Of a DNA stretch of 64,000 nt, positions 2,785 to 18,069 are shown piece by piece. A model generated the notes under the pieces. That model saw only the letters and a list, made by a program, of their open reading frames with translations. It did no database searches and was not told the origin of the DNA. The position numbers were made by a program, and so were the translations under genes. This DNA is from Patescibacteria group bacterium (lineage in GTDB: Bacteria; Patescibacteriota; Minisyncoccia; UBA6257; 2-01-FULL-56-20), in NCBI GenBank assembly GCA_024654525.1, contig JANLHI010000030.1, positions 2,886 to 66,885 of the forward strand, given 5' to 3'. Numbering within the stretch: position 1 is the stretch's first letter; each line of letters opens with the position of its first letter.

Positions 2785-4062
2785 ATGCCTGCACAAAAAC
2801 TTTCATGGAGGAACGAAGTGCGTCGGGTTTCGGATCTCGTGCCGAATCCGAAAAACCCTCGTTCCATCTCGCCGAAGCAGATGGAGGACTTGAAGCGCAG
2901 TCTCAAGAAATTCGGCCTGGTCGAATTGCCCGCGATAAACACTAACAACAGAATCTTGGCCGGACACCAACGCCTCCTCGCGCTCCAACTCCTCGGACGC
3001 GGTGACGAAAAGATTCCCGTTCGCGTGCCAACGCGCCCGCTCACAAAGAAGGAATACGATCAATATCTTCTGACCAGTAACCGCGTCCACGGTGAATGGG
3101 ATTATCAAATGCTCGCCGAGCAATTCGATGTCGAAATGCTCCTCGCCTCAGGCTTTGACGACGGGGATCTCTCGGTTATTTTCGACGATCTTCAAGTGGA
3201 AGACGACGAATTCGATCCGGAAAAAGAATTAAAGAAGATAAAGAAAACGGATGTGAAGCCGGGAAGTCTCTACCAACTGGGACCGCACCGTATTCTTTGT
3301 GGCGACAGCACCAATTCCGAAGTCGTCAAGAAACTCATGGGCGGCAAGAGTGCGGCGGTCATTCTCCAAGATCCCCCGTACAACATCGGTCTCAGCTATA
3401 ACAAAGGCATCGGCGGGAAAGGTAATTACGGCGGTGAAACGAACGACGCGAAGTCAGACGAAGAATATGAATCATTTCTCCGCAAAGCCCTTGCGAATGG
3501 CGTCGACGCCTGCGAGAAGGACGCACACGTGTTCACATACCACGATCCCCGCTACACCTGGCTTTTGCAAAAACTTTACAAAGAGCTGGGCATCGCGTAC
3601 AAGCGGACGTGTTTGTGGGTAAAAAATAATTCTACGCCCACACCTAACGTCGCCTTCAATCGCCAATATGAACCGGCGCTCTACGGCGTTATCGGGAAAC
3701 CGTATCTTTCGGAGCGATCATTCAATTTTTCCGAGATCTTAAACCGCGATGTTGGGATCGGTAATCGCACCATAGACGACATTTACGATTTGATAGACAT
3801 CTGGCTCGTAAAGCGGCTCGGCGGTTCGGAGTATGAGCATCCCACTGAAAAGCCGCCCATGCTGCACGAGCGGCCGCTGCGGCGTTGCACTAAGCCGGGA
3901 GATATCGTGCTTGATCTGTTCTCTGGTTCATCCAGTATTATGGTCGCTTGCCACGGGTTGAAGCGCATCGCGTATATGGTCGAACGCGAGCCGATTTTCG
4001 TTCAATTATCGCTAAACAGATATGCCAAACTTACGGGAGAAAAAGCAAAAAGGATCGCCTAA
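2785..4062 (+). CDS. ParB-like nuclease domain fused to an N6-adenine/N4-cytosine DNA methyltransferase (phage-type)
   Basis: N-terminal VPNPKNPR...ILAGHQRLLA matches a ParB N-terminal domain. The DPPY motif (ILQDPPYN) and C-terminal HPTEKP...DLFSGSSS (motif I) indicate a beta-class amino-MTase. Confidence 0.8.
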   Translation: MPAQKLSWRNEVRRVSDLVPNPKNPRSISPKQMEDLKRSLKKFGLVELPAINTNNRILAGHQRLLALQLLGRGDEKIPVRVPTRPLTKKEYDQYLLTSNRVHGEWDYQMLAEQFDVEMLLASGFDDGDLSVIFDDLQVEDDEFDPEKELKKIKKTDVKPGSLYQLGPHRILCGDSTNSEVVKKLMGGKSAAVILQDPPYNIGLSYNKGIGGKGNYGGETNDAKSDEEYESFLRKALANGVDACEKDAHVFTYHDPRYTWLLQKLYKELGIAYKRTCLWVKNNSTPTPNVAFNRQYEPALYGVIGKPYLSERSFNFSEILNRDVGIGNRTIDDIYDLIDIWLVKRLGGSEYEHPTEKPPMLHERPLRRCTKPGDIVLDLFSGSSSIMVACHGLKRIAYMVEREPIFVQLSLNRYAKLTGEKAKRIA

Positions 4063-4795
4063 GCCCGGCACGATCTGGCAGCTTGGCGATCATCGCTTGG
4101 CTTACGGCGACGCTCGCGACAAAGAGTTACTGAAGCGACTTATCGGCGTGGAGAAAATAAACCTTGTCTGTTGCGACGTTCCATACGGAGTGGATGTCGC
4201 AGCGTCAAAGCGCAACTTCCGCACGCTTTCTAAAGACAGAGATATTGCTAACGACCAATTGCAGTCGGACGACGAGTATCGGAAGTTTACAAGCGACTGG
4301 CTGCAGGCGGTATCGTCGTTTCTTGCCGCCAAAAACTCCGCCTACATATTTAATGCCGATAAGATGGTTTGGTCTTTGCGGGACGGCATGATTGATTCCG
4401 GTTTCAAGGTGGCCCAACTTCTTATTTGGATCAAATCTCAAGCAGTGGTAGGACGACTTGATTATTCTCCGCAGCACGAGCTTATCCTCTACGGCTGGCG
4501 CGGAACGCATAAATACCGCCGCTCAAAAGACAAAAGCGTCTTGTTCTATCCGCGGCCGTCGAAAAGCAAACTACATCCGACGACCAAACCCATTGGTCTT
4601 ATCCGGAGGCTTATTCTTAACTCCTCGGAAATCGGTGGTGCGGTCTACGACGGGTTTTTAGGCAGCGGTACTCTGCTTTTGGCTTGTGAGGAAACGCGCC
4701 GCAAATGCTTCGCAGTTGAGATTGATCCCGAGTATTGTCTCACGTCAATTTTCCAATGGGAGCGCCTGACCGGTAAAAAAGCAGAGCAGATATGA
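4022..4795 (+). CDS. DNA methyltransferase (N6A/N4C, beta-class)
   Basis: DVPY motif (CCDVPYGV) and HPTTKP...YDGFLGSGT motif I. It overlaps the upstream MTase by ~40 nt. Confidence 0.8.
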   Translation: MPNLREKKQKGSPKPGTIWQLGDHRLAYGDARDKELLKRLIGVEKINLVCCDVPYGVDVAASKRNFRTLSKDRDIANDQLQSDDEYRKFTSDWLQAVSSFLAAKNSAYIFNADKMVWSLRDGMIDSGFKVAQLLIWIKSQAVVGRLDYSPQHELILYGWRGTHKYRRSKDKSVLFYPRPSKSKLHPTTKPIGLIRRLILNSSEIGGAVYDGFLGSGTLLLACEETRRKCFAVEIDPEYCLTSIFQWERLTGKKAEQI

Positions 4796-5235
4796 AAAAG
4801 ACCGATCACATAAAAGAGCTGCTTATAGATCAGCTGCGCAGGACGCCAATCGTTGAGGCCGCTTGTCAGAAAGCGAACATTTCCCGCATGACGTTTTATC
4901 GTTGGAAAAATGAGGACAAAGAATTCGCAAAAAAGGTCGACGAGGCGCTTTCCGACGGGCAGCTTCTTGTGAACGATCTCGCCGAAAGCCAGCTTATTGG
5001 CGCGGTCAAAGATCGGAATTTTCAAGCGATTGCCTATTGGCTCAAACACCACCATCCGAGCTACAAAACGCGTATTGAAATCGAGGGAGCGCTCAACACC
5101 GTGCACGAACTTTCACCAGAACAAGAAAAACTTATGCGAAAAGCGTTTGAACTGGCAGGCATTAACATTGATGACTACGAAGAAGCACGAGATACGAGTC
5201 AAAAAAGTAACCAACTAAAACAAATCAATGAGTAA
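4792..5235 (+). CDS. Phage terminase small subunit-like HTH protein
   Basis: HTH ISRMTFYRWKNEDKEF, an ATGA overlap with the upstream gene, and a position directly upstream of TerL. Confidence 0.5.
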   Translation: MKKTDHIKELLIDQLRRTPIVEAACQKANISRMTFYRWKNEDKEFAKKVDEALSDGQLLVNDLAESQLIGAVKDRNFQAIAYWLKHHHPSYKTRIEIEGALNTVHELSPEQEKLMRKAFELAGINIDDYEEARDTSQKSNQLKQINE

Positions 5236-6712
5236 CAATTCTGACGACGATAAAAACGTTTTTGAAGCCATCGCAAAAGACCGCGTTCTTCGGCAGCAGC
5301 TTGGTCAGCGCAGCCATCACATGTTTTTCGTAATGTACTTTCCGCACTACATCAAATACCCCGTGGCGGAATTTCACAAAGATATTTTTCGCATCACCGA
5401 AGATCAGTCGACGAATCTTGCCTGCATCGTGGCGTTCAGGGGAAGCGGCAAGAGCACGCTAGTAACTTTTTCATATTCTCTCTGGTCGATCCTTGGCATC
5501 CAGCAAAAAAAGTTTGTCCTTATTATCTGTCAGACCCAAGCTCAGGCCAGACAGCACATGGCCAATCTCAAATTTGAGCTTGAGCAGAATACCCTCCTCA
5601 AAAGCGACATGGGACCGTTCCGCGAGGAAGCCGGCGACGGCCAGTGGGCCATATCGTCTCTTGTGTTCAAAAACACTGGAGCTCGGATAATGATCGCTTC
5701 AATAGATCAAAGTATTCGAGGTATTCGCCACCACGAATACCGCCCCGACCTTATCATTCTGGACGACATTGAGGACAGTAATTCCGTGAAAACCTTCGAG
5801 GGCCGCATCAAAATATCCGATTGGTTTTCCCGAGAGGTGGTGCCGCTCGGGGATATCGGAACTCGCATCATTCTCGTTGGCAACCTTCTTCACGAAGCCG
5901 CGCTTACGATAAGTCTCCGAAACAAAATTGACCGCAAAGAAATACGCGGCACCTACCGTTGGTTTCCGCTCATCGACGAAAGCGGAGCATGCCTGTGGCC
6001 AGGTAAATTTGATACGTCGGATAAAATTGAGGCTCTTCGTCAAAGCGTTGGCAACGAAATAGCCTGGCAGCAAGAGTATCTTCTCAATATTGTCTCTGAC
6101 AGCTCTCGTGTCATATTCCCGGAGTGGATTCGCTACTACGACGAGCTGCCCAGCGAAACATTGCGGAGTATCCACGTGGGCGTTGATCTGGCCATATCCC
6201 AGCGGGAAGGAGCCGATTTCACGGCAATGGTTGGCTTACGCCGCTATGGATACGGCAACACCATGCGTCTCTACGTGATTCCGAACCCGTTTAACAAGCG
6301 GGTGCCGTTTCCCGAAGTAGTGGCTACCATAAAAACTCTTGATCGAACGTTCAAAGCCAAAGGAGAGCATGCCAAATTCATTGTTGAGTCGAATGGTTTT
6401 CAAGAAATCTATGTGCACGCGGTAAGCGACAGCGGTTGCGACGTTAAGGGCGTAAAGCATACTGGGGACAAGCGTTCGCGACTGGCACTCACGAGCCAGC
6501 TTATTCAAAACGGTACGATTGTATTTCCGCGCCGTGGAGCGGAAGAACTTATCGCGCAACTCACGGGGTTTGGGGTAGAAAACCATGATGATTTGGCGGA
6601 TGGGTATAGCACCGCTGTACTCGATGTTATGAATGACATAGAAAACGACCGGGGTTGGGAGGCATGGATGCAGTGGGTGAAAAGCAATGGCGGAAGTTGT
6701 CAGATTAGGTAG
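5228..6712 (+). CDS. Phage terminase large subunit
   Basis: Walker A AFRGSGKST, Walker B LIILDDIED, and C-terminal RNaseH-like nuclease acidic motifs (VGVDLA, HDDLADG). Confidence 0.8.
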   Translation: MSNNSDDDKNVFEAIAKDRVLRQQLGQRSHHMFFVMYFPHYIKYPVAEFHKDIFRITEDQSTNLACIVAFRGSGKSTLVTFSYSLWSILGIQQKKFVLIICQTQAQARQHMANLKFELEQNTLLKSDMGPFREEAGDGQWAISSLVFKNTGARIMIASIDQSIRGIRHHEYRPDLIILDDIEDSNSVKTFEGRIKISDWFSREVVPLGDIGTRIILVGNLLHEAALTISLRNKIDRKEIRGTYRWFPLIDESGACLWPGKFDTSDKIEALRQSVGNEIAWQQEYLLNIVSDSSRVIFPEWIRYYDELPSETLRSIHVGVDLAISQREGADFTAMVGLRRYGYGNTMRLYVIPNPFNKRVPFPEVVATIKTLDRTFKAKGEHAKFIVESNGFQEIYVHAVSDSGCDVKGVKHTGDKRSRLALTSQLIQNGTIVFPRRGAEELIAQLTGFGVENHDDLADGYSTAVLDVMNDIENDRGWEAWMQWVKSNGGSCQIR

Positions 6713-6827: not shown

Positions 6828-7322
6828 TCATGCCGCCTTATTAAGCTTTTTCTTTCTAAGAAGAATATATGCAATGCCTAAAACTAAAGAGATGCCGAGA
6901 GGCGGAAGTGCGTACATTATAATACCGACAATGTTATATAAGATCGAGGCACTCGTATTTAGTGCATCAAATAACCACGGCACGATAAACTGATAGGAAA
7001 TATACATTAAAAACGCCCAAACCACTGCCTTGATAAAGTTATAAAGACCCCACAAACCCATCCCTTTTACCAAGATGTCATGCAATACCTTGTAGAAGCG
7101 AGCCATATACAGTAGGAATCCGAGCGTAAAAAACGTAAAAGCGCTATAGAAAGCTCGAACAAAGATGCTCGGCTGCTCAAACGGCTCGATCTGTTGCCAT
7201 TCAAAATGTATTCCCAAAACGAAGCGCCACAATAAAAACACTAACGCTAAAATGATATATGTCGATGCGGATCTAACAATATCATTTACATACTTCAATA
7301 TCGTTGCTTTATGCCACTTCAT
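6828..7322 (-). CDS. 4-TM membrane protein co-transcribed downstream of the ABC-ATPase
   Basis: 164 aa with four hydrophobic helices. Its start lies 5 nt after the ATPase stop. Confidence 0.45.
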   Translation of the reverse strand: MKWHKATILKYVNDIVRSASTYIILALVFLLWRFVLGIHFEWQQIEPFEQPSIFVRAFYSAFTFFTLGFLLYMARFYKVLHDILVKGMGLWGLYNFIKAVVWAFLMYISYQFIVPWLFDALNTSASILYNIVGIIMYALPPLGISLVLGIAYILLRKKKLNKAA

Positions 7323-7327
7323 TTTTA

Positions 7328-8791
7328 TTATTTACCGGCCTTTCTCTTGCCGTACTTTAATTCTCGAAGTGTACTTATAGATTTGACAAGATCTTCTGAC
7401 AAGAATTTACTATTCTTTGAATTTTCTGGATGATGGATAGAGTTACGAATGTATTTTGGCAGAGAAACGTTCTCTGTCTTGCTTAATTTATCATTGAACC
7501 ACTTTTCCGTTGTTGGAAGTCCGTTTAATTTACTTGGGTCAATATCTTCGAGATAGCCATACAGTTCGTTGTGGTAATCGTTTGTGGGTATACCGAATAC
7601 TTCGTAGTTCACTTCCGAATAGGAGCTATCCTTACCTTTGATTTGCTCAAGCTTTGTTTTCTTGTTGCCTTGTTTTACAACTCGGAAGCATCGGTCTATA
7701 TGGTCTTTGTCAATCATATAATTTGAGTGCGTTGCAAAAATGACAACGTTGTTCTCCTTATTCTTTGAGATCTTTATAAGTTCATTCCTCAAGTATTCCT
7801 GCGCTTGTGGGTGTAGGTGGGTTTCCGGCTCATCCAGCAGCAATAACGAATACGATAATTGATCAGTGGAGCTTTCTGCTGAAATTGTAAGAAGAAATGA
7901 TACGAATTGTCTGAATCCATCGCTTCTTTGGTTTGTTGTTTTAGAATCGTATTTTACTCCGACATCCTCAACCAAAAATGATAGCATCATGTTATTGATC
8001 TGAAATTTGATCTTGACCGGATGATTCTCCCACACCTTCTTGATGTGAGCAGTGACCTTATCTCCCAGCTTATCTTGGAGATCACTAACCTCGGCTGGAT
8101 CGGTCAACAGCTTACTTATGGCTGCTGGGATGTTTGCCTCATCAATACCTGCTAATCGAAAACAATTTAGCAGTGGGATTGATGTTTTCTCGGGTGCTGC
8201 AGAAAAAGCATTGAGATCAATTTGATCATTAATAAGGTATTCATTGGTTGATTTCCAAAAAGTGACGTGGTGTGAAATCTTCCAAAAGTAAGTCGGCAAG
8301 GTAGTTTCGAAATAAGTTTGAAGATTAAAATCATCTTGCGTTAGTTCCGGATTCTTCTTTATTGGTTTATCTCCCTCAAGAGTATAGTCGGGAAAAATGT
8401 GCGTCTTAAATTGGATACGATCAAAGTTTTTTCTTGCCGGTGTTGCTGTCGGCTCATAACCCACGCAAACATCTACCTCCTCAATCTGTATCTTTGAAAG
8501 CAGATCTTTTTCAAAGCCCTTTGCCTCAAGCTCCTTCTTCAGATTTTTCTCCTCGCTTACTTCTAGATTGTAGGTTAGTAAGACGCTGATCGGTTTTGAT
8601 TCGTTGAAATAATCTTTAGGAAACAAGACGTCGCCACTATCTACCAAAGAAACAGCTCTCAAAAAACTACTCTTTCCTGATTCATTGATACCAATGAGTG
8701 TGTAGGTTTTACCACCATGAATCTCTTCGACATTAAACGTTTCGTTTTCAATGCTCCTGAAGTTTTCGATTGTTATTTTTCTAATCTTCAT
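7328..8791 (-). CDS. SMC-head/ABC-type ATPase (AAA_15/21-like) with a C-terminal HEPN-like R-x4-H motif. PrrC/RloC-like anticodon-nuclease candidate.
   Basis: N-terminal ITIENFRSI...GINESGKSS (Walker A), LLLLDEPETHLHP (Walker B/D-loop) and ATHS (H-loop). The C-terminal tail contains KYIRNSIHHPEN. The gene is in a type I R-M locus. Confidence 0.55.
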   Translation of the reverse strand: MKIRKITIENFRSIENETFNVEEIHGGKTYTLIGINESGKSSFLRAVSLVDSGDVLFPKDYFNESKPISVLLTYNLEVSEEKNLKKELEAKGFEKDLLSKIQIEEVDVCVGYEPTATPARKNFDRIQFKTHIFPDYTLEGDKPIKKNPELTQDDFNLQTYFETTLPTYFWKISHHVTFWKSTNEYLINDQIDLNAFSAAPEKTSIPLLNCFRLAGIDEANIPAAISKLLTDPAEVSDLQDKLGDKVTAHIKKVWENHPVKIKFQINNMMLSFLVEDVGVKYDSKTTNQRSDGFRQFVSFLLTISAESSTDQLSYSLLLLDEPETHLHPQAQEYLRNELIKISKNKENNVVIFATHSNYMIDKDHIDRCFRVVKQGNKKTKLEQIKGKDSSYSEVNYEVFGIPTNDYHNELYGYLEDIDPSKLNGLPTTEKWFNDKLSKTENVSLPKYIRNSIHHPENSKNSKFLSEDLVKSISTLRELKYGKRKAGK

Positions 8792-8802
8792 ATATTTAGC
8801 GC

Positions 8803-11800
8803 TTATGCGTACACGTTTACCTTCGTGTCGACGTAGTTATCATACACATGAAAATATACCTTCTGCGTTCGATCTTCGCAGTCGGGATCGGTATATGTCG
8901 GCTCCGGTAGCTCGTCGTAAAGTATCTTTGCAATAGTGACTTTGACATCAGCGCGCGTTTCTTCTTTCTTCTTCCAGTCCAGCACAAGCTTCTCTTGTTT
9001 TAGTCGAGCCAATAGCTCTTTAGCTACCTTTTTGACCTGATCAATCTCGCTCGGGTTTAAATTCTCTTTACGGAGAATGTCGAATACCGCCAGCTCTTCT
9101 TCGGTAAGGTTCTCTGAAACAGCACGGCGATCTTCATCGCTCAATTCCTTTGCAAGCTCTACTAGCTGGTTAAAGAAGGCATCAAGATCATGCGATCCGG
9201 TATTGTATTCGTGTAGGAGCTTATTTAGGCGGTCTAGGAAGTGTTTGCGGAGCTTGTTCTTGCGTACCATCTCTTTGATCTTCTCTTCCAGCTCGGCGCT
9301 CAATGCCTCAGCTTCAATGTTCTGCGTATCAGAATCATCAAAAAACTTCCTCAGTACCTCGAAGTCAATCTTGCTCAAGTCCTTAAGTTTCGGCACATCT
9401 TTGATCACATACTCGCCAGCGCGGATAGAGCGATCAAGTAGGTTTTCAAGATCCTTTTTCACCTGCGACACGTTTGTATCTTCATCGATCACCTCGCGGA
9501 TACGCGATGCAATAACTTTGTATGCCGTCACTTCGTGATAATAATCTTCCGCCTTCGGTTCCGGCAAAACTGCTTTGTAGTATTTGTACGCGTCACCAGC
9601 AAGATCAAGATATCGCTGCTTTGTTTTTTCATTTTGGAGGATGCGGTTTGTGAATACATCCACAAGCCGGATCTTCTCGACATCTTTTGCTTCGAGAAGG
9701 TCGTTGATATCCAGCTCGAGTGTCTTTAGAAATTGCCTTGTCTTTGCGACGGTAGCAAAAAGTATTTCCACCAGCTCATTTTTGTCTTTGATAATCTCAT
9801 CATCTCCGTCTTTTGTAGATGCATAAACTGCGAGTGCTTTTTGTAGGTTACGGAATACCCCGATGTAGTCGACGATCAAGCCATTCGTTTTATTTGGATA
9901 GACACGGTTTGCGCGAGCGATGGTTTGCATCAGCGTGTGATTCTTGAGTGGCTTATCGAGATAAAGCGTTGAAAGGTTCGGTACATCAAAGCCGGTCATC
10001 CACATCGCGCACACAAACACGATCCGCAGATTGCTATCCGGATCCTTAAACTTGGTTTCAAGATCTTCGTTTAGAATACGAGCGCGCAGTGGGCGCATGT
10101 CAATCTCGAATTCTTCCATGTCGGCAATTTCATTTTGGCTTTGGCTTACCACAACCGCCATGTCGATGTTCTCATATTTCTGAACCTGTTCTCTCAACAT
10201 TTCTTTCTCGTGGTCATCCTTTGCTTTGGTAACGGCGATATTCATCTTTGCTAGATGGCGCTGCATCTCTGCCTTCACTTTCGCGTACATGCGAATGGCA
10301 GTTTTCTTGTCGATAGAAACAACCATCGCCTTACCGTCATATCCACGAGCAGTAAAGTGCGTGACGATATCCTCTGCAACTTTATTAAGGCGATCTTCAC
10401 GTGTGATCAGATGATAGAAAGTCGAAAATTCCTGCTCAAGCTTCTCTTCTTCGTCGGTCGAGAGTTCATAGAAGTCCATCACTTTCTCAAGATCCTTTTG
10501 GATCTCCGGATTCTCATTTTCAAGTTTGGGTACTCGGTTTTCGTAGTAAAGAGGCACCGTAGCACCATCTTCTACCGACTGGGCGAAGTTATAGGTCGAC
10601 ACGTAGTCACCGAAGGTTTCTCGGGTCTTTTCTTCGCCCTTAGCCATCAGTGGCGTGCCTGTAAAGCCAATAAATGCGGCTTTGGGCATCGCTATGCGCA
10701 TATTCTGCGCCAAGCGGTCATATTGGGTACGATGCGCCTCATCTACCATCACAATGATGTCGCTGCGCTCTGAAAGCACCGGCGGTTTCTCTTCGGGCTT
10801 CGTACCGAATTTATGGATCAAAGAAAAGATGTGACGATGATCTTCAGTTAAGAGCTGGCGGAGATTGAGAATCGAATCAGCATGTACTTCTTCTTTATAT
10901 ACCGCACCGCAGGCAGAGAATGTTTTGTATATCTGCCTGTCGAGTTCAGTTCTGTCAGTTACGACAATGAAAGTGAAGTTGCCAGTCATCTTTCGTAGCA
11001 CCTTTTGCGAAAGGAAGATCATGGAGTACGACTTGCCGGATCCTTGCGTATGCCAAAAGACACCAAGTCGTCCGTGATTTTTGTCGCGATTCTTGATCTG
11101 ATCAAACGCCTGATTTACTCCGAGTAGCTGGAAGTAACGAGATATAGCTTTTACTCTCTCGCGGAAGGAATCATCAAACAGTGTGAAGTTTTCAATAATA
11201 TCGAGAAGTCGTGAAGGTTCACAAGTTCCTTTAATAACTGTTTCCAAACTCACGCGCCCTTCCTCACTCTCGCTCTTTATCTTTTTCCATTCATTAAAAT
11301 GCTCGTATGCGGAAGTGAGTGTTCCTACTTTAGTTTCGATGCCGTTAGAGAGGATGATAAAACCATTGTGCCAAAAGAGCTGCGGAATAGTGTCTTTATA
11401 ATCACGGATGTTTTCTTGATAGGCATTTCGTAGATTCTTATGTGATGCCTTCAGTTCGATCAATACGAGCGGTAAGCCATTCACGAAACCGATCAGATCG
11501 GGACGGCGCTTGTGAAGCTCTCCGGTGATCCACATTTGGGATACCAGCAAGAAGTCATTATTCGCTGCGTTTTCAAAATCAAAGACGCGGATGTTGATAC
11601 TTTCAAACGCGCCCTGCTCGGTTCGGATCTCTGTTTTGATTCCGTCTTTTATAAGCTTGTAGATGTCATGGTTAGCATTGACCATGCTTGCAGTAGAACG
11701 ATCGCGCGTGAGTTCAGTAATAGCTTGAGCGATTGCTTCCTGTGGCGCATCCGGATTGAGCTTCTCAAGTGCCAGCTTTAAGCGATTAACCAAAACAACC

Positions 11801-11937
11801 TGCCCTTGATTCTCACGCCCCAAAAGAGCATCTCCTTCTTCGGAGTAGGCATTGATAAAATTCTTAACACCCCAAGGCTCCGCAAAAATCTTTACGGCTG
11901 TTTGCTCAATTAAATTGTTTTCAGAAAATTCATTCAT
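8803..11937 (-). CDS. hsdR: Type I restriction enzyme R subunit
   Basis: 1044 aa with a DEAH box (MVDEAHRTQ) and SF2 helicase motifs. It overlaps hsdS by 4 nt. Confidence 0.9.
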   Translation of the reverse strand: MNEFSENNLIEQTAVKIFAEPWGVKNFINAYSEEGDALLGRENQGQVVLVNRLKLALEKLNPDAPQEAIAQAITELTRDRSTASMVNANHDIYKLIKDGIKTEIRTEQGAFESINIRVFDFENAANNDFLLVSQMWITGELHKRRPDLIGFVNGLPLVLIELKASHKNLRNAYQENIRDYKDTIPQLFWHNGFIILSNGIETKVGTLTSAYEHFNEWKKIKSESEEGRVSLETVIKGTCEPSRLLDIIENFTLFDDSFRERVKAISRYFQLLGVNQAFDQIKNRDKNHGRLGVFWHTQGSGKSYSMIFLSQKVLRKMTGNFTFIVVTDRTELDRQIYKTFSACGAVYKEEVHADSILNLRQLLTEDHRHIFSLIHKFGTKPEEKPPVLSERSDIIVMVDEAHRTQYDRLAQNMRIAMPKAAFIGFTGTPLMAKGEEKTRETFGDYVSTYNFAQSVEDGATVPLYYENRVPKLENENPEIQKDLEKVMDFYELSTDEEEKLEQEFSTFYHLITREDRLNKVAEDIVTHFTARGYDGKAMVVSIDKKTAIRMYAKVKAEMQRHLAKMNIAVTKAKDDHEKEMLREQVQKYENIDMAVVVSQSQNEIADMEEFEIDMRPLRARILNEDLETKFKDPDSNLRIVFVCAMWMTGFDVPNLSTLYLDKPLKNHTLMQTIARANRVYPNKTNGLIVDYIGVFRNLQKALAVYASTKDGDDEIIKDKNELVEILFATVAKTRQFLKTLELDINDLLEAKDVEKIRLVDVFTNRILQNEKTKQRYLDLAGDAYKYYKAVLPEPKAEDYYHEVTAYKVIASRIREVIDEDTNVSQVKKDLENLLDRSIRAGEYVIKDVPKLKDLSKIDFEVLRKFFDDSDTQNIEAEALSAELEEKIKEMVRKNKLRKHFLDRLNKLLHEYNTGSHDLDAFFNQLVELAKELSDEDRRAVSENLTEEELAVFDILRKENLNPSEIDQVKKVAKELLARLKQEKLVLDWKKKEETRADVKVTIAKILYDELPEPTYTDPDCEDRTQKVYFHVYDNYVDTKVNVYA

Positions 11938-13247
11938 ATATTTATATTGCCGGTAACAAGCTTAGACAGTAAAGCGTCTTTGGAGTTTGATAATGAATCC
12001 ATTTGCTTATTTAAATTCAGCCCTAAATCTATAAGTGCGCTGACTAAATTCTCATATTCAGTTACTAATGAGATAGGAGGTAAAACCATTTTTAAATTCA
12101 GTGTCTGCACGGGACTTAAATTTTGTTGTGCCACACCATTTGAAAGCAATTCGAGTTTTTTCTTAAAAGATTCCGATCGAAAAAGTGAATATACAAAACT
12201 CTTATACACCGCATCTTTTGGAACGATCTTTCCTACGCGCTGGTTGAGCAGGAGATTTTCACCGTAAACAATGCAAACGCGTCCAACATTTCCGGTTAAT
12301 GACAGCAAAATATCACCATCGTTGAGTCGGCAATGATCCGGCATTTTTGGGGGAATTTCGGCAATGTAGTTAAAATCGGAAATAAATTTACCATCATGTA
12401 TATTTTTTATTGTTATGATTCTGTATAGCCCTGTTGTAACATAATCTTTCCCCTTAAAAGCATGGCCAGATTTAATATCCAAAATTGATTCTAAATTACA
12501 AATTTTCCATCCTTCTGGGATCTTCCCAAATTCGGTACCGCTATCAACCATTTTAATTTTCTCGTGATTGGGAAAGCGATAATTTACGAACCATTCAGTG
12601 TAAATAACCTGCATCATCAGCTCCAATATCTTGATCCGGCGAGTGTTATTTTCGATAAGATCATCATAAGGAGATAGATGATTAACGATACTCTCTTGAA
12701 CCTGAATCGGTGGAAGTGACAATTCGATATTCAAAAGATCCGACACTTTTACGCTTGGTTGAGCGGCGCCTCGATCCAATTCGGTTATCTTGTTTTTATT
12801 GAAAAATAGAAAATAATATAAAAACTCGTTTAAGCAACCCTTGCCGCATCTTATGCCTATTGTATTTTGAATTATCACACTCTTTTTCTTAGGTGCTAGA
12901 GCAACATTCCCAAAACCATTACCAACAAGTGTTACAAGAACATCCTTCTCTTTGAGGTATTTTCTTATAAAATCGTGAAATGTTTTTTCATCAATAAATC
13001 TTCTTGCGTTTGCTAAAGCCACGGATCTCGTACCAGTTATCAGGAAATTATCGATAACGGGAATTCCTTCATTATAAAAAGCTTGTGGATTTTTCCCTCT
13101 GTTATCAACAATGTAATCTACCAAAGCACTTAGCTTTGTATTATTCCAATTATTTTTTGCAGCAGTGATGGTCATATCAGAATAACTTTCCAAAATTCTT
13201 GCTAATTTTATTCTCAAGACCATGCGCTTCTTCTGTGAGCTTCTCAA
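11934..13247 (-). CDS. hsdS: Type I R-M specificity subunit. The real start is probably Met25 (MTITAAK, ~13175).
   Basis: Two target-recognition-domain repeats with conserved central and C-terminal coiled regions. It lies between hsdM and hsdR. Confidence 0.85.
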   Translation of the reverse strand: MRSSQKKRMVLRIKLARILESYSDMTITAAKNNWNNTKLSALVDYIVDNRGKNPQAFYNEGIPVIDNFLITGTRSVALANARRFIDEKTFHDFIRKYLKEKDVLVTLVGNGFGNVALAPKKKSVIIQNTIGIRCGKGCLNEFLYYFLFFNKNKITELDRGAAQPSVKVSDLLNIELSLPPIQVQESIVNHLSPYDDLIENNTRRIKILELMMQVIYTEWFVNYRFPNHEKIKMVDSGTEFGKIPEGWKICNLESILDIKSGHAFKGKDYVTTGLYRIITIKNIHDGKFISDFNYIAEIPPKMPDHCRLNDGDILLSLTGNVGRVCIVYGENLLLNQRVGKIVPKDAVYKSFVYSLFRSESFKKKLELLSNGVAQQNLSPVQTLNLKMVLPPISLVTEYENLVSALIDLGLNLNKQMDSLSNSKDALLSKLVTGNINI

Positions 13248-14703
13248 GCTCTGTATTTATCCCTCGTACAGTCGTTTCAAAATCGACGTCGCTTACGTTC
13301 TCATTATCTGCTGCGCCAACATATCGACCAGAATTTAAGGAATAACCAGCCGCGCGCACTTCTTCAAGGGCGGCTACCTTGCAAAGCCCCTTAATATCTG
13401 TGTATTTCTTTATACCTTCTCCGCGATAGCTACGCACGATATCGGCTATTTGCTGTATCTGTTCCTCCGTCCAGTCGCGATGCGCGCGATCAATTTGATG
13501 GTAGATATTTCGCGCATCAATGAAAAGAATTTTATCCTTGCGATCAGTTTTCTTTTTACCTTTGTCTAGGAACCACAAGGTAACTGGCAAGGTGACGTTG
13601 TAGAACATGTTTGATCCTACGGCGACCATTACATCAACCACGCCATCATCAATCATTTTTGCGCGAATATCCTTTTCGCTGTGTCCGGCATCGCTTGCAG
13701 AGTTAGCCATAACAAAACCAGCACGACCAGTATTTTTTAATGCACTCAAGAAAATCTGAATCCAAAGAAAGTTTCCATTATCAGTGCGAGGCAAGCCATG
13801 CGGAAAGCGAGGATCATCTTTAATGCGCTCCTTGTCGATACCATTCACGTTGAAAGGAGGATTCGCCATAGCGAAGTCAAACTTCCCAAGTGAACGATGT
13901 AGATCTTCGTAGTAGGTATTGCCTTGTTTGATATCACCGGATAGACCGTGAATCGCAAGGTTCATCTTTGCAATGCGAACCGTTTGGTCAGTTTTCTCTT
14001 GACCGTAGATAGATACTTCACGCGCCGCTTTTAACTTCTTTCCTTTCTCAAAATGACGCTTGATGAACTCAACAGATTGCACAAACATACCACCGGATCC
14101 GCAGGCAGGATCGTAAATATATCCCTTGAACGGCTCAAGAATTTCGACGATCAGCTTAACAATAGAAGTCGGTGTGAAGAACTCACCACCGCCTGATCCG
14201 TCTGCGATGGCGAACTTACCCAAGAAGTATTCATAAATAAGACCGAAGGCATCACCTTCAATCGTGTCCGGAATCTGATTGAAATTTTTGAGAAGTGAGA
14301 TGATAGCTGAATTTTCCAGCAAGTTGTAATTCTTCGGTAGGATACCAGCAAGCTCTTTGTTTTCTCCTTCAATAGTTTTCATCGCATCATTTACTGCCTT
14401 ACCCATGTTTGTACCTTCAGGAAGGGTTATGAGATGTGAGTAGTGAGCGCCTTCAGGAATATACAAAACGCCACGAGAGTGATAATCCTCGGGCGTGATA
14501 GGACGCTGGCGCTTGGATGTTGCTTTTGCACGCTCTGCCTCAAGATCCTTTTTAGCGGCGATAAATTTAACGTCGGCAAACTTCAAGAAGATAAGCCCCA
14601 AAACCGGTTCGGCAAACTCATTCAAGCGAAGCGCAGAATTAGCGCGGAGATGATCCGCCGCTTCCCACAATCTACTCTCGAGTTGTTTGGTATCTGATGA
14701 CAT
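13177..14703 (-). CDS. hsdM: Type I R-M N6-adenine methyltransferase subunit
   Basis: N-terminal HsdM_N domain (LWEAADHLR), an NPPF motif (ANPPFNV), and the SAM-binding motif GKFAIADGSGGGEFFTP. Confidence 0.9.
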   Translation of the reverse strand: MSSDTKQLESRLWEAADHLRANSALRLNEFAEPVLGLIFLKFADVKFIAAKKDLEAERAKATSKRQRPITPEDYHSRGVLYIPEGAHYSHLITLPEGTNMGKAVNDAMKTIEGENKELAGILPKNYNLLENSAIISLLKNFNQIPDTIEGDAFGLIYEYFLGKFAIADGSGGGEFFTPTSIVKLIVEILEPFKGYIYDPACGSGGMFVQSVEFIKRHFEKGKKLKAAREVSIYGQEKTDQTVRIAKMNLAIHGLSGDIKQGNTYYEDLHRSLGKFDFAMANPPFNVNGIDKERIKDDPRFPHGLPRTDNGNFLWIQIFLSALKNTGRAGFVMANSASDAGHSEKDIRAKMIDDGVVDVMVAVGSNMFYNVTLPVTLWFLDKGKKKTDRKDKILFIDARNIYHQIDRAHRDWTEEQIQQIADIVRSYRGEGIKKYTDIKGLCKVAALEEVRAAGYSLNSGRYVGAADNENVSDVDFETTVRGINTELEKLTEEAHGLENKISKNFGKLF

Positions 14704-14706
14704 AAG

Positions 14707-14952
14707 TTATTTTTGGCTTTGTTTAAGAAATTTTAATATGTCTTCTTTCTTATAGCGTCTATCCCGCCGACTTCCAAAACGCATTGCTTTTAATATGCCA
14801 CGGTTGTCCCACTTGCGGAGAGTATTAGGATGACAATTCAGAATCTCGCAGGCCTGTTGAAGCGTGAGAATATCGGGCATCTGTTTTATTTTAGGGCGCT
14901 GTTTTTTCATAAAAGCATAACTTAACACAAGTTTACACGACAATTTAAGCAT
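14707..14952 (-). CDS. Excisionase/MerR-type HTH DNA-binding protein. The start is probably the internal Met (MKKQRPK, ~14910).
   Basis: The segment LTLQQACEILNCHPNTLRKWDNRGIL is a Xis-family HTH. It is adjacent to the serine recombinase. Confidence 0.5.
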   Translation of the reverse strand: MLKLSCKLVLSYAFMKKQRPKIKQMPDILTLQQACEILNCHPNTLRKWDNRGILKAMRFGSRRDRRYKKEDILKFLKQSQK

Positions 14953-15042: not shown

Positions 15043-16380
15043 ATGACCAACCAAACTACAGGGCCGGTGGGAGCTGTGGCCCAAACACAAATCCAGCTTC
15101 CCATAAAGGTCAAATACGTGCTCTATGCGAGGAAAAGCACGGAAAGCGAGGAACAGCAGATCCTTTCCATAGACAGCCAGATCAAGGAGATGCTCCAGAT
15201 GGCCGAACGTGACCATCTGGAGGTGGTAGAGATCAAGAAAGAGTCGCACTCGGCAAAGGAAGCGGGGCAACGTCCAGTGTTCAATGAGATCGTCGATGAA
15301 ATCAAAAGTGGCAAATTCAACGGAATACTTACATGGGCGGCAGACCGTATATCGAGAAACGCCGGAGACCTCGGAAGAATCGTGGACCTCATGGACAGCG
15401 GAAAGTTGATTGAGATACGCACCTACGGGCAGAAGTTCACCAACAGCCCGAACGAGAAGTTCCTCCTTATGATATTGGGCTCGCAGGCTAAGCTCGAGAA
15501 CGACAATAAGGTGGTGAATGTGAAGCGCGGGTTAAGGGCGCGATGCGAGATGGGGCTATGGCCATGCACGGCACCGACGGGATACCTGAACAGCACGATT
15601 AAGGAGAAAAGCTGCCATGTAGAAATTGATCCCCACAGGGCTCCCATGATTAAGAAGATGTTTGAGAAAGTGGCCTACGAGAACATGAGCGGGCGACGGC
15701 TTCACGCATGGCTCAAGGACGAGGCTAAGTTCCGGGTAAGGAGTGGCAAGCCGCTCACGATCAGCAATATATACATCACTCTGCGAAATACTTTCTACTA
15801 CGGCTCATTCGAATATCCGAGAGGCGGTGGGCAGTGGTATGCCGGGAAGCATATGCCCATCATCACCAAGGAACTCTTCGACAAGGTGCAGGAGAAAATG
15901 GCTAACTATGCGGTGCGCGGGGAAACAAAGGAATTCGCCTTCACGAAACTCATGACCTGCGGACTATGCGGATCTGGTATCACGGCCGATGAGAAATTCA
16001 AGAAACAACAAAATGGCAATGTACACAGGTACGTCTACTACGGTTGCTGCCGGTTCCAGGATAAGAACTGCAAATCGGGATATATGCGAGAAGAAGATCT
16101 GATCGAGCAGCTCGCAAAGCTGATGGATAAAATTGACCTCGATGAGATCGGCATGAAGGAGCGGATTAAAATTGAAATCGAACGGCACAAGAAATTCCAG
16201 TCGGGACTTTTGGGGATAAAGGAAAAGACGATCAAAGTCGGCGACATTGACGTGCGAAATTACGCGAAGTACGTGTTGCGAGACGGAACGATACTTGAGA
16301 AGCGAGAGTTGTTATCTTGCCTGCGTAGTAAGGTGACGATGGCGGAGAGAGAAGTGAAGATTGCTCAAGCTAAGACTTAA
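15043..16380 (+). CDS. Serine recombinase (resolvase N-terminal domain plus recombinase and zinc-ribbon domains)
   Basis: Catalytic region YARKSTESEEQQ...SIDSQ, ADRISRN, and a C-terminal CGLCGS...YYGCCRFQDKNC zinc ribbon. Confidence 0.8.
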   Translation: MTNQTTGPVGAVAQTQIQLPIKVKYVLYARKSTESEEQQILSIDSQIKEMLQMAERDHLEVVEIKKESHSAKEAGQRPVFNEIVDEIKSGKFNGILTWAADRISRNAGDLGRIVDLMDSGKLIEIRTYGQKFTNSPNEKFLLMILGSQAKLENDNKVVNVKRGLRARCEMGLWPCTAPTGYLNSTIKEKSCHVEIDPHRAPMIKKMFEKVAYENMSGRRLHAWLKDEAKFRVRSGKPLTISNIYITLRNTFYYGSFEYPRGGGQWYAGKHMPIITKELFDKVQEKMANYAVRGETKEFAFTKLMTCGLCGSGITADEKFKKQQNGNVHRYVYYGCCRFQDKNCKSGYMREEDLIEQLAKLMDKIDLDEIGMKERIKIEIERHKKFQSGLLGIKEKTIKVGDIDVRNYAKYVLRDGTILEKRELLSCLRSKVTMAEREVKIAQAKT

Positions 16381-16470
16381 AAAGGCTTTGCCTGCATTTA
16401 TCAAATCGACATCTTCGAGTTTTACATATTGGATCAGTGTGACTTACAATAACGAAAACAAGAAATACTC

Positions 16471-17175
16471 ATGTACATTAAAAATATCAACAAAAGGCAA
16501 TTTATTTGCTTCACTCAAAACGAGTTATCTTCGCTTTATAAAGCAGCAAAGTTAAAGCAACTTATGCAGGAAATGAGCGCGAGAGGTGTCACATTGAAAG
16601 ACTTGGCGGGCAATCACTCTAGGATGGAGGAAATCGCTAACATGGTTGGCGACCGAGGGGCGGCAGACCGAGACGAACACGAGATTTTCGCTGGTCTCTT
16701 TGTGTTCGCCCAATTTTATGGAAATGATAGTGAAATATGCTTCGAGCTGCAGGACTCATTCAGTCCACAAAGAGATAGGATTGTATCTCTGGCCGATCTG
16801 ATTAATCTAAGGAAAACAGACACTGAATCCGATTTTATGATTAAGGCAGAAGATGGATTTAGAGATTTTCAGTTGAAGCGTTATCGTGGCCCGCTTCAAA
16901 CGCAGGCGATCCTCGATTTCATTATTGGAGTGGTGCGACACTATGGAAATAATTTAGGCGACACGAATTTGCTTATACAGCTTCAGTCTCCGTCTTACAC
17001 CCACATGGACGCCGACTTTCACGATTTGCACAACCAGATAGCATCGATCGGTTTTCCTTTCTTGGGGCAAGTTCTAGTTTCTTACAACGACAACAATAAA
17101 AGCCAGGCAATTATTCAAGTACATCCCAAATTGACGAAAACAGAAATCCCGTTATTACTCCCAAGCCAACGATGA
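16471..17175 (+). CDS. Hypothetical protein, first gene of a two-gene cassette
   Basis: 234-aa ORF with an ATGA overlap to the downstream gene. No recognisable motif. Confidence 0.4.
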   Translation: MYIKNINKRQFICFTQNELSSLYKAAKLKQLMQEMSARGVTLKDLAGNHSRMEEIANMVGDRGAADRDEHEIFAGLFVFAQFYGNDSEICFELQDSFSPQRDRIVSLADLINLRKTDTESDFMIKAEDGFRDFQLKRYRGPLQTQAILDFIIGVVRHYGNNLGDTNLLIQLQSPSYTHMDADFHDLHNQIASIGFPFLGQVLVSYNDNNKSQAIIQVHPKLTKTEIPLLLPSQR

Positions 17176-17912
17176 CTTGTAAACTTTGCCTACAGGATAA
17201 ACAGCTCCTGAAAAAATCTCATATTATTCCGAACTTTATGTACGGCGACCTTTTCGACGGCGATCATAGTCTGTTCAAAGTTCGCCTTTCTGATTGGAGT
17301 AAGCAGAAGCTTCAGACAGGGGAATACGAGGCGAATATCCTTTGTGCTAATTGTGATAACAAGCTTATTGGTGGATTAGAAAATTATGCCTGCCAGGTAC
17401 TCTATGGAGGGAAAATTAATGGCGTAGAAATGCGCAATGAGATAAACCAAAATGGTGTCGAGTTCACTTATGCAAAAGGCATAGACTATAAAAAGTTTAA
17501 GCTATTCCTTTTATCATTAGTGTGGCGGTGCAGTATCTCGAAAAGAGTTTTTTACAAGCAAGTTGAACTGGGACAAAAGCACGAAGAAACGATAAGGGCG
17601 ATGATCTACGGTGGCGATCCAGGAAAACAAATGGATTATCCATGCTTTATTAGTTCCTATCGAAAACACAACGAATTGCCAGCGAAAGTAATAAGCCAGC
17701 CGACTAAATTTCGCCATGACGGTGGCGTTGCTTATTCGATTATCCTCGGAGGTATTGTCTATATGTATTACATTTCGAAGCACTCTGTCCCACAGGTAAT
17801 ATCCGAAACGGTCATCAATGAGCACGGCGAACTGAAAATTGTGCATATGCCACTTGACCAAGCAAAAAATCTTCTGAACCACTACACACAACATAGGGTT
17901 TTCCCCGTTTAG
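17172..17912 (+). CDS. HNH-like nuclease candidate
   Basis: N-terminal CKLC...SHIIP......NILCANCDNK resembles the Cx2C-HIxP...N...Cx2C(H/D) HNH core. Confidence 0.35.
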   Translation: MTCKLCLQDKQLLKKSHIIPNFMYGDLFDGDHSLFKVRLSDWSKQKLQTGEYEANILCANCDNKLIGGLENYACQVLYGGKINGVEMRNEINQNGVEFTYAKGIDYKKFKLFLLSLVWRCSISKRVFYKQVELGQKHEETIRAMIYGGDPGKQMDYPCFISSYRKHNELPAKVISQPTKFRHDGGVAYSIILGGIVYMYYISKHSVPQVISETVINEHGELKIVHMPLDQAKNLLNHYTQHRVFPV

Positions 17913-17997
17913 GCAAAAACCAGTCAATAGATTGATCGGTTATGGAAACACGGGAGACCGGGCTTTCCAAGCCCGCTCGGTCGGTCTCACATGCCTG

Positions 17998-18069
17998 TGC
18001 CCTCGAGAGGAATCGAACCTCTATCTTCACGTTAGGAGTGTGAAGCTCTATCCATTGAGCTACGAGGGC
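17998..18069 (-). tRNA. tRNA-Arg(CCT)
   Basis: Cloverleaf folded by hand: acceptor GCCCTCG/CGAGGGC, anticodon loop CTCCTAA, T-arm AGAGG-TTCGATT-CCTCT. Its 3' end faces the island. Confidence 0.75.

Follow-up and report, generated by a model that had tools for sequence, protein, structure and literature searches.

Do two small genes that overlap beside the integrase of a mobile element make up one system, or are they separate passengers? The question is raised by a gene pair, here called A and B, on a contig of a Patescibacteria group bacterium (assembly GCA_024654525.1, contig JANLHI010000030.1, positions 2,886 to 66,885). This whole stretch of 64,000 nucleotides is called the window below, and coordinates are window positions unless another locus is named. 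A and B lie between a large serine recombinase gene and a tRNA-Arg gene. A preliminary description, made from the sequence alone, had read them as island cargo, saw no recognisable motif in the first protein and an HNH-like core at the start of the second, and likened the pair to two-gene anti-phage systems such as Septu. Having compared both families and their neighbourhoods, we favour, on balance, another reading: A and B are two unrelated, independently mobile nuclease-type cargo genes that lie side by side by chance, and are not subunits of one system.

Results

A and B do not recur together

The gene structure is as first described: coordinates and sequence agree on two overlapping open reading frames (ORFs), both in the ORF listing, between the serine recombinase and tRNA-Arg genes.

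16471..17175, + strand: ORF A, 234 amino acids (aa), predicted PD-(D/E)xK-fold nuclease
17172..17912, + strand: ORF B, 246 aa, HNH_5-like at the N-terminus, with a conserved α/β domain at the C-terminus

At the junction, CAA CGA TGA CTT, the ATG of B shares ATGA with the stop codon of A. The exact NCBI matches of the two proteins come from a Patescibacteria metagenome-assembled genome and carry the locus tags NUV53_03110 and NUV53_03115. Both are real genes, since each has many homologues: for A, a word-indexed search returned 25 and a profile search 206 clusters at 50% identity; for B there are 303.

We compared the window with 17 other A loci (L001, L003–L017, L033 and L034, of which L005 and L006 are the same sequence) and with 13 other B or B-like loci (among L002, L018–L032 and L035–L038). 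The A loci come from GTDB genomes (1), JGI metagenomes (15) and exact look-ups of the closest homologues (2, which are 63% and 66% identical to A); the B loci come from a phage contig (1), exact look-ups (10) and plasmids (2). Using tblastn, we found B nowhere in any of the 17 A loci, and none of the 13 B or B-like loci contains A. The pairing is absent even for the closest homologues, namely A at 62–66% identity (L003, L033 and L034) and B at 59% (L018); the latter is solitary and lies between opposite-strand genes. An all-against-all comparison of the genes neighbouring A gave the serine recombinase as the sole recurrent partner. A conserved two-gene system would be recognised by recurrent neighbours, and A and B are not such neighbours of each other. 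The preliminary description had counted absence of the pair elsewhere as one half of what would overturn its reading, and this is what we observed.

Because the pair fails to recur, we read A and B as independent genes rather than as a conserved system. Two points weigh against this. Loci with long flanks are few (about 9 for A and about 13 for B), most family members lying on contigs that are too short. In addition, the ATGA overlap is a tight coupling at this locus, as a functional pair would also show.

A is a predicted PD-(D/E)xK nuclease

We aligned 104 diverse members of the A family, with identities down to 20%. Residues E71 and D121 are each present in 104 of the 104 sequences and K136 in 103; position 134 is Q in 88 sequences and E in the other 16, with nothing else. 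The codons concerned are:

16681..16683, + strand: E71, in the first core helix (residues 67–83)
16831..16833, + strand: D121, at the start of core strand 122–126
16870..16878, + strand: Q134-L135-K136, the (Q/E)-x-K motif, in core strand 129–138

The protein first described as having no recognisable motif therefore carries an E...D...(Q/E)xK nuclease signature across its family. An AlphaFold (AF2) model built from the family alignment has a mean predicted local distance difference test score (pLDDT) of 90. In this model, assigned with DSSP, strand 129–138 is the hairpin partner of strand 122–126 and is followed by helix 144–157 and strand 166–171. The order of elements is α-β-β-β-α-β, with E, D and (Q/E)xK at the canonical PD-(D/E)xK positions, and A thus combines the topology and the motif by which this fold is recognised. 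The same order, with Glu carried by the first helix, Asp opening the second strand and (Q/E)xK lying in the third, is seen in Hjc, RecU, SfsA, the nuclease domain of PaqCI and HincII.

When the A model was compared with the PDB using Foldseek, PD-(D/E)xK nucleases accounted for 21 of the 50 top matches (among them SfsA, PaqCI, Card1, EndoMS, Hjc, HincII, RecU, Mus81, SPARDA and ACE1). Arguing against the assignment, none of these matches is individually significant, the best E-value being 0.029 (SfsA) and the best Foldseek probability 0.63 (PaqCI). A also differs from established members of the fold in lacking a significant sequence match, in a 66-residue N-terminal extension of a hairpin plus helices, and in a C-terminal β-sheet. 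No Pfam, NCBIfam, PADLOC or PHROG model matches A; searching the 104 family members against Pfam yielded scattered noise only, and profile searches of the A and B families against PDB sequences gave only chance matches (uS17 and a lectin coiled coil). We conclude that A very probably represents a new PD-(D/E)xK family that belongs to none of the described ones.

The A family is apparently restricted to Patescibacteria, or has so far been seen mainly there. A has no match among INPHARED phages by tblastn, and none in PLSDB. The arrangement of a type II restriction-modification (R-M) system is not seen in the window: no methyltransferase gene adjoins A, the nearest being hsdM, 1.8 kb away on the other strand.

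The N-terminus of B resembles a zinc-knuckle His-Me finger

The B N-terminal sequence, MTCKLC...SHIIP...NILCANCDNK, reads as given in the preliminary description, and its Cys, His and Asp positions are conserved across the B family. The features of this region are:

17178..17189, + strand: C3-x-x-C6, first zinc knuckle; C3 invariant, C6 conserved in at least 90% of sequences
17217..17231, + strand: S16-H17-I-I-P20; H17, where finger strand 1 ends, is the candidate catalytic His
17232..17321, + strand: residues 21–50, inserted loop; helix 21–27 and hairpin 34–47 between the finger strands (DSSP)
17343..17360, + strand: C58-A-N-C61-D62-N63, second zinc knuckle, opening helix 59–77; D62 (N63) is a candidate metal ligand

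B matches three uncharacterised PHROG families (phrog_19960 with E=1e-26), and its family ranges over Patescibacteria, Bacteroidia and Marinimicrobia plus one phage contig. Three distant B-like relatives, at 21–25% identity, were found on alphaproteobacterial plasmids in PLSDB. The N-terminal motif is the most conserved part of the family. Residues C3, H17, I18, P20, C58 and C61 do not vary even at 22% identity, plasmid relatives included; the distant plasmid relatives have C-x4-C spacing at C6. Position 62 is D or E in every sequence compared, and N63 is conserved in at least 90%, with G or A in some. The residues that define a His-Me finger, namely the His, a metal ligand and CxxC...CxxC, are all found in the B family.

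The AF2 model of B is of high confidence (pLDDT 95.5, predicted template modelling score 0.92). It consists, in order, of a hairpin with C3 and C6, a strand leading to S16-H17, helix 21–27 with hairpin 34–47, strand 52–58 and helix 59–77. As predicted, this order fits a zinc-knuckle His-Me finger with an enlarged Ω-loop, and zinc knuckles and large Ω-loop insertions are both common variations of His-Me fingers (PMC5714182). Residues 80–246 make up an α/β domain of high conservation, the conserved positions including Y106, F109, K110, W118, R119, S121, S123, G134, E138 and R142.

The profile evidence points the same way. HNH_5 is the sole Pfam match of B (13.4 bits, E=0.078, residues 3–25), with positions 1–25 of the model aligned to the segment around S16-H17-I-I-P20. 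It is also the sole Pfam signal that recurs in the B family, in 25 of 111 members (best E 0.009), the next family being matched by 7. When residues 24–49 were deleted in silico, the HNH_5 score rose from 13–16 to 20–23 bits (E=7e-5 at 23 bits), and the match extended over positions 1–43 of the 56 in the model, so that the second CxxC is covered.

Further likenesses are found outside Pfam scores. HNH_5 (PF14279) and groups 1 and 8 of the His-Me finger superfamily, as classified by Jablonska et al. 2017 (PMC5714182), share with B the order CxxC...(x)H-I-I-P...CxxC-(D/N), a zinc knuckle before the finger and a second knuckle that starts the helix. B differs from HNH_5 in its score (13–23 bits, against a cut-off of 27.5), in the structured 30-residue insertion between the finger strands, in Ser before the His, in Asp for the final His/Asn, and in its conserved C-terminal domain of 170 residues, for which the PDB offers no fold match. 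A second comparison is with T4 endonuclease VII (PDB 1EN7/2QNC), which we take to have, as B does, a four-Cys zinc site with a metal ligand directly after the second CxxC. The T4 sequence was verified to read LLCNLCN62, against ILCANCD62N in B. The phage enzyme is a domain-swapped dimeric junction resolvase with a minimal Ω-loop, whereas B has a long loop and an extra domain.

Several results argue against the assignment. No curated HNH threshold (HNH, HNH_2–5) is reached by B, which scores at most 23 bits against the 27.5-bit cut-off even with the loop deleted. Foldseek comparison of B with the PDB gave nothing significant. A loop-deleted N-terminal profile (alignment A6) searched against PDB sequences returned only MsrB (E=0.6), and in an hhalign comparison of the loop-deleted profile with T4 endonuclease VII the motif was not aligned. 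Lastly, the active site could be degenerate, since the candidate catalytic His of B is preceded by Ser instead of Asp or Glu and the family shows no conservation at the middle Asn of HNH. Three R.PabI chains appeared among the Foldseek matches with E of about 1 and were judged to be noise (root-mean-square deviation about 20 Å); against BFVD, the model matched one uncharacterised phage protein (E=6e-12). Neither PADLOC nor NCBIfam has a model that matches B.

The same shortfalls could be read as meaning that the N-terminus is a non-catalytic zinc ribbon or treble clef that binds nucleic acid or protein, in which case B would not be a nuclease and its function would lie in the C-terminal domain. 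That no HNH model reaches threshold, that no solved HNH is matched by profile, by hhalign (T4 endonuclease VII) or by Foldseek, that Ser or Ala stands where Asp or Glu is expected before H17, that the middle Asn varies, and that family members have weak matches to the zinc-ribbon families DUF4428 and Znf_SCAND3 are all consistent with this. However, H17 of the H-I-I-P motif is invariant even though four Cys already fill the zinc site, and an acidic residue always follows the second CxxC, at the place of the metal-binding Asn62 of T4 endonuclease VII; moreover, HNH_5 outnumbers any other family matched, with 25 members against 7. We regard a non-catalytic ribbon as a doubtful reading, which still deserves more weight than the other alternatives considered below. 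We conclude that the N-terminus of B is probably a His-Me finger. Whether B has actual nuclease activity we judge an even question, given the Ser in place of the usual acidic residue ahead of the His and the lack of conservation at the middle Asn. Of the HNH-like core first described, the plausibility stands, through the HNH_5 signal and the order of elements in the predicted model; a match to a solved HNH, or a score above threshold, was not obtained.

The serine-recombinase element

The genes and sites that flank the pair are:

14707..14952, − strand: small HTH_17/MerR-type DNA-binding protein (HTH_17, E=5e-13)
15043..16380, + strand: large serine recombinase, 445 aa (Pfam Resolvase, Recombinase and Zn_ribbon_recom)
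16421..16450, + strand: promoter-like site TTTACA-18-TACAAT, 20 bp upstream of the A ATG, 10 of 12 positions matching
17997..18069, − strand: tRNA-Arg(CCT), 85 bp past the end of B (ARAGORN; Rfam tRNA, 68 bits)

The 445-aa ORF is identified as a large serine recombinase by its matches to Resolvase, Recombinase and Zn_ribbon_recom, and it is the integrase of the element bearing A and B. The HTH_17 gene is excisionase-like or regulator-like, and tRNA-Arg(CCT) is likely the right-hand border of the element. The G+C content at third codon positions is 0.655 in the recombinase gene, compared with 0.47 in A and 0.44 in B, and we therefore consider the element a mosaic. A search for attachment-like direct or inverted repeats around the element gave only short, chance-level matches, as expected of an element with a serine recombinase. 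Promoter-like sites are no commoner in the region than in shuffled sequences, so the site upstream of A is a mere hint. No terminator-like site was detected between A and B.

Neighbourhoods of B homologues

B homologues keep varied company. On the phage contig (L002) the gene order is replication initiator (rep), DnaC-like loader, a 339-aa protein, B, terminase small subunit (TerS), terminase large subunit (TerL) and portal. Two homologues lie in other serine-recombinase elements (L026 and L029). Another is beside genes for a Zeta toxin, an SLFN-like helicase and MazG (L018), and another ends an operon with DUF2726 (L020). On the plasmids, a B-like gene adjoins an Mrr_cat restriction nuclease (L031) or lies in an island with a type ISP R-M system, an AAA ATPase, DUF4238 and SbcCD-like genes (L032). 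Elsewhere, B stands alone between hsp20 and dnaK (L027) or follows a tRNA cluster (L028). Any defence role, for A or B, is read from neighbourhood, and it counts against that role that about half of the loci lie amid housekeeping genes.

We considered whether B could be a selfish, free-standing homing-type HNH endonuclease without a host role, packaging-associated in phages, with A an unrelated resident nuclease. Such an enzyme might be expected where B is seen: in different phyla (Patescibacteria, Bacteroidia and Marinimicrobia) at 40–60% identity, as a single gene between housekeeping genes (hsp20 and dnaK) or after a tRNA cluster, in PHROG families, and, on the phage contig, immediately upstream of TerS-TerL-portal, a position that terminase-associated HNH genes reportedly occupy according to Kala and colleagues in 2014. 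The conservation of B does not suit it: all 246 aa, those of the 170-residue C-terminal domain among them, are strongly conserved (mean column identity 39–48%), unlike the fast-evolving DNA-binding modules of homing endonucleases. Moreover, we saw no association with an intron, an intein or a target gene, and tblastn with B found no homologue among the INPHARED phage genomes. Known packaging HNH proteins are about 100–120 aa long and belong to PF01844, which also argues against this explanation. We consider it unlikely.

With the window included, there are 14 loci, and at 7 of them B closely follows a co-directional gene, the two either overlapping or lying no more than 18 bp apart. This upstream partner is A in the window, a 539-aa protein at L020 and L026, a 243-aa protein at L032, the Mrr_cat protein at L031, the 339-aa protein at L002 and a 157-aa protein at L035. 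PADLOC recognises none of these partners, and hhalign comparison of the A profile with the Mrr_cat (L031) and 243-aa (L032) partners showed no relation.

Coupling of this frequency, together with the 4-bp ATGA overlap, the single promoter-like site upstream of A, and the PD-(D/E)xK type of two partners (A, by prediction, and the Mrr_cat protein), could speak for a true two-component system confined to this lineage (such as a heteromeric nuclease for restriction or defence, in which B nicks or senses and A cleaves), or for B as a shared module with interchangeable upstream partners, A among them. We regard this as improbable. Not one of the 30 other loci pairs A with B again, closest homologues included; half of the B loci are solitary, with distant or opposite-strand neighbours (L018, L023, L027, L028 and L037); gene overlaps are common in compact genomes; and the partners have no detectable similarity to one another. 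In its most far-reaching form, the B family would be a modular effector with swappable upstream partners (A, the 539-aa and 243-aa proteins and the Mrr-type nuclease), an unrecognised class of small two-gene defence systems on serine-recombinase elements, plasmids and phages, of which A-B would be one that pairs two nuclease chemistries; this we hold to be just as improbable. The solitary half of the B loci favours autonomy of B, and its upstream coupling could equally be explained by tight packing of variable cargo arrays.

The 539-aa gene lies directly upstream of B on two unrelated Patescibacteria contigs (L020:4377-5996 and L026:4385-6004). It overlaps B in L026 and is 4 bp from it in L020, and the two 539-aa proteins are 46% identical. 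Neither has a Pfam or PADLOC match, and the 39 homologues in their family are all unnamed proteins that likewise lack Pfam matches. This protein is the sole recurrent partner of B that was found, and it may form a real two-gene unit with B.

Three further observations concern individual B loci. On plasmid NZ_CP015441.1 (L031:4950-5699), the annotated start of the B-like gene (5034) leaves out the N-terminal Cys motif that the family conserves; starting in frame near 4950, immediately past the Mrr_cat stop codon, brings the motif back, and the start in the record is probably mis-called. In L018 (Patescibacteria) and L023 (Bacteroidia), the B homologue, with variable neighbours, lies a few kb from the rpsL-rpsG-fusA operon, which may reflect a shared insertion hot spot or be a coincidence. 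The 339-aa phage protein upstream of B (L002:4026-5045) has an R-x4-H stretch, FRDVVCHKK, reminiscent of the HEPN motif; it has no PHROG, Pfam or PADLOC match.

Neighbourhoods of A homologues

In L004 the A homologue directly follows an N6_N4 methyltransferase gene between two tRNA-Ser genes. In L005/L006 it is part of a type I R-M operon, where hsdS lies on one side of it and the helicase-subunit gene on the other. L001 has it alone, flanked by rlmH and ribE (riboflavin synthase), and at other loci it lies beside peptidases or a DNA alkylation repair gene. Searching the neighbours of the closest A homologues (L003 and L034) against PDB sequences gave nothing.

Two loci recall the window more closely. 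L033:697-3428 holds HEPN_AbiU2, an A homologue (63% identity) and a convergent 445-aa serine recombinase that is 60% identical to that of the window, and at L008 an A homologue (48%) lies near a more distant serine recombinase (29% identical). L033 is thus the same element type with the same A, an Abi gene in the place of B, and A inverted relative to the recombinase. That an Abi gene occupies the slot held by B in the window offers mild guilt-by-association for a defence role of B.

That A is instead an accessory factor of the recombinase (a recombination directionality factor or an element-maintenance helper), with B as independent cargo, is very improbable: A does adjoin a large serine recombinase in three loci with divergent recombinases (the window, L033 and L008) and, at about 230 aa, is similar in size to some serine-integrase directionality factors, of which phiC31 gp3 and Bxb1 gp47 are examples, but no recombinase lies within the fetched flanks of at least six A loci (L001, L014, L004, L005/L006, L010 and L012), A points one way with respect to the recombinase in the window and the other way in L033, a protein-protein role needs no invariant PD-(D/E)xK catalytic tetrad, and an excisionase-like HTH_17 gene is already there.

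The island to the left of the pair

The remaining genes of the island are:

2785-4062, + strand: ParB-DNA methyltransferase fusion (phrog_498, 4e-90)
4022-4795, + strand: N6_N4 methyltransferase
4792-5235, + strand: terminase small subunit TerS
5228-6712, + strand: terminase large subunit TerL (phrog_38, E=3.6e-69)
6828-7322, − strand: multi-pass membrane protein, 164 aa, no family match, after the ATPase gene
7328-8791, − strand: ABC ATPase (AAA_15/AAA_21), OLD/AriA/GajA/PtuA-like, 487 aa (PADLOC Old 1e-28, AriA 2e-22, also AbiLi, GajA and PtuA)
8803-14703, − strand: complete type I R-M operon, directly left of the HTH and recombinase genes
8803-11937, − strand: hsdR
11934-13247, − strand: hsdS, with a low G+C content of 0.355
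13177-14703, − strand: hsdM

The placement of the pair as island cargo is borne out: TerS and TerL, the OLD/AriA-like ATPase, the type I R-M operon, HTH_17, the serine recombinase and the terminal tRNA support the view that the A/B cassette closes a mobile, defence-rich stretch ending at a tRNA. In the phage-like block at 2785-6712 (+ strand), portal and capsid genes do not come next; opposite-strand defence genes begin instead, and the block may therefore be a prophage remnant or a satellite-like element.

The ATPase at 7328-8791 and the membrane protein at 6828-7322 look like an ATPase/membrane-effector defence pair. It is to this ATPase gene that the comparison with Septu, PARIS and AbiL properly applies, and not to A and B. 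The likeness of the A/B pair to Septu (the ABC ATPase PtuA with the HNH protein PtuB) lies in an HNH-like protein beside a partner in a defence-rich region. The differences are that A is nuclease-fold and not an ATPase, that B has no PtuB match, that PADLOC matches neither protein, and that the pair recurs at 0 of 17 and 0 of 13 other loci. We rejected Septu for A and B; the sole PtuA/AriA/OLD-like ATPase in the window is the one at 7328-8791, paired with the membrane protein. The suggestion of a Septu-like two-gene system is accordingly not supported.

Within positions 1-24000, the cumulative GC skew has its minimum near 14–15 kb. Past about 21 kb, and as far as the window extends, the ORFs examined are on the + strand and the skew is strongly positive. 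The minimum and the strand pattern would fit a replication origin, or else a major strand switch, near the island.

Discussion

The data described above are best accommodated by A and B sharing a variable slot between the serine recombinase and the tRNA-Arg border of a mobile or defence island. The gene structure, family membership, motif conservation, predicted topology, absence of co-occurrence and neighbourhoods are results of the comparison; nuclease activity of either protein, substrates, a defence role and co-transcription are inferred from them. The two genes would probably be co-transcribed from the promoter-like site at 16421-16450. A is predicted to be a Mg2+-dependent PD-(D/E)xK endonuclease, in which E71, D121 and Q134 would bind the metal and K136 would position or activate a water molecule. 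Most likely, A would act as a solitary restriction-like or defence nuclease against foreign DNA, which fits its occasional methyltransferase and R-M neighbours. Restriction endonucleases that are solitary or of type II/IV and travel as mobile-element cargo offer a close parallel, since A is likewise a small standalone gene, moving among R-M operons, integrase elements and slots flanked by tRNA genes. A differs from such restriction cargo in having no adjacent methyltransferase gene in the window or at most A loci, L004 being the exception.

For B, we propose that C3, C6, C58 and C61 would hold a structural zinc ion, that H17 would serve as the general base, and that D62 (N63) would ligate the catalytic metal. 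The 30-residue Ω-loop insertion is predicted to pack on the 170-residue α/β domain, which may provide target recognition, specificity or control.

For annotation, an overlapping gene pair beside an integrase is insufficient evidence of a system; here, the test for co-occurrence clearly fails. A and B are new members of known enzyme kinds and do not constitute a new system, but both families gain a testable identity. Annotation as a predicted PD-(D/E)xK nuclease with defined catalytic residues is now possible for the A family, which comprises about 200 clusters at 50% identity. The B family (more than 300 clusters at 90% identity, in several phyla and in phages) becomes a candidate His-Me finger enzyme with an unusual loop. 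Both are useful for annotating genomes of the candidate phyla radiation, where they add to the small catalogue of mobile cargo of organisms whose defence repertoire is poorly known.

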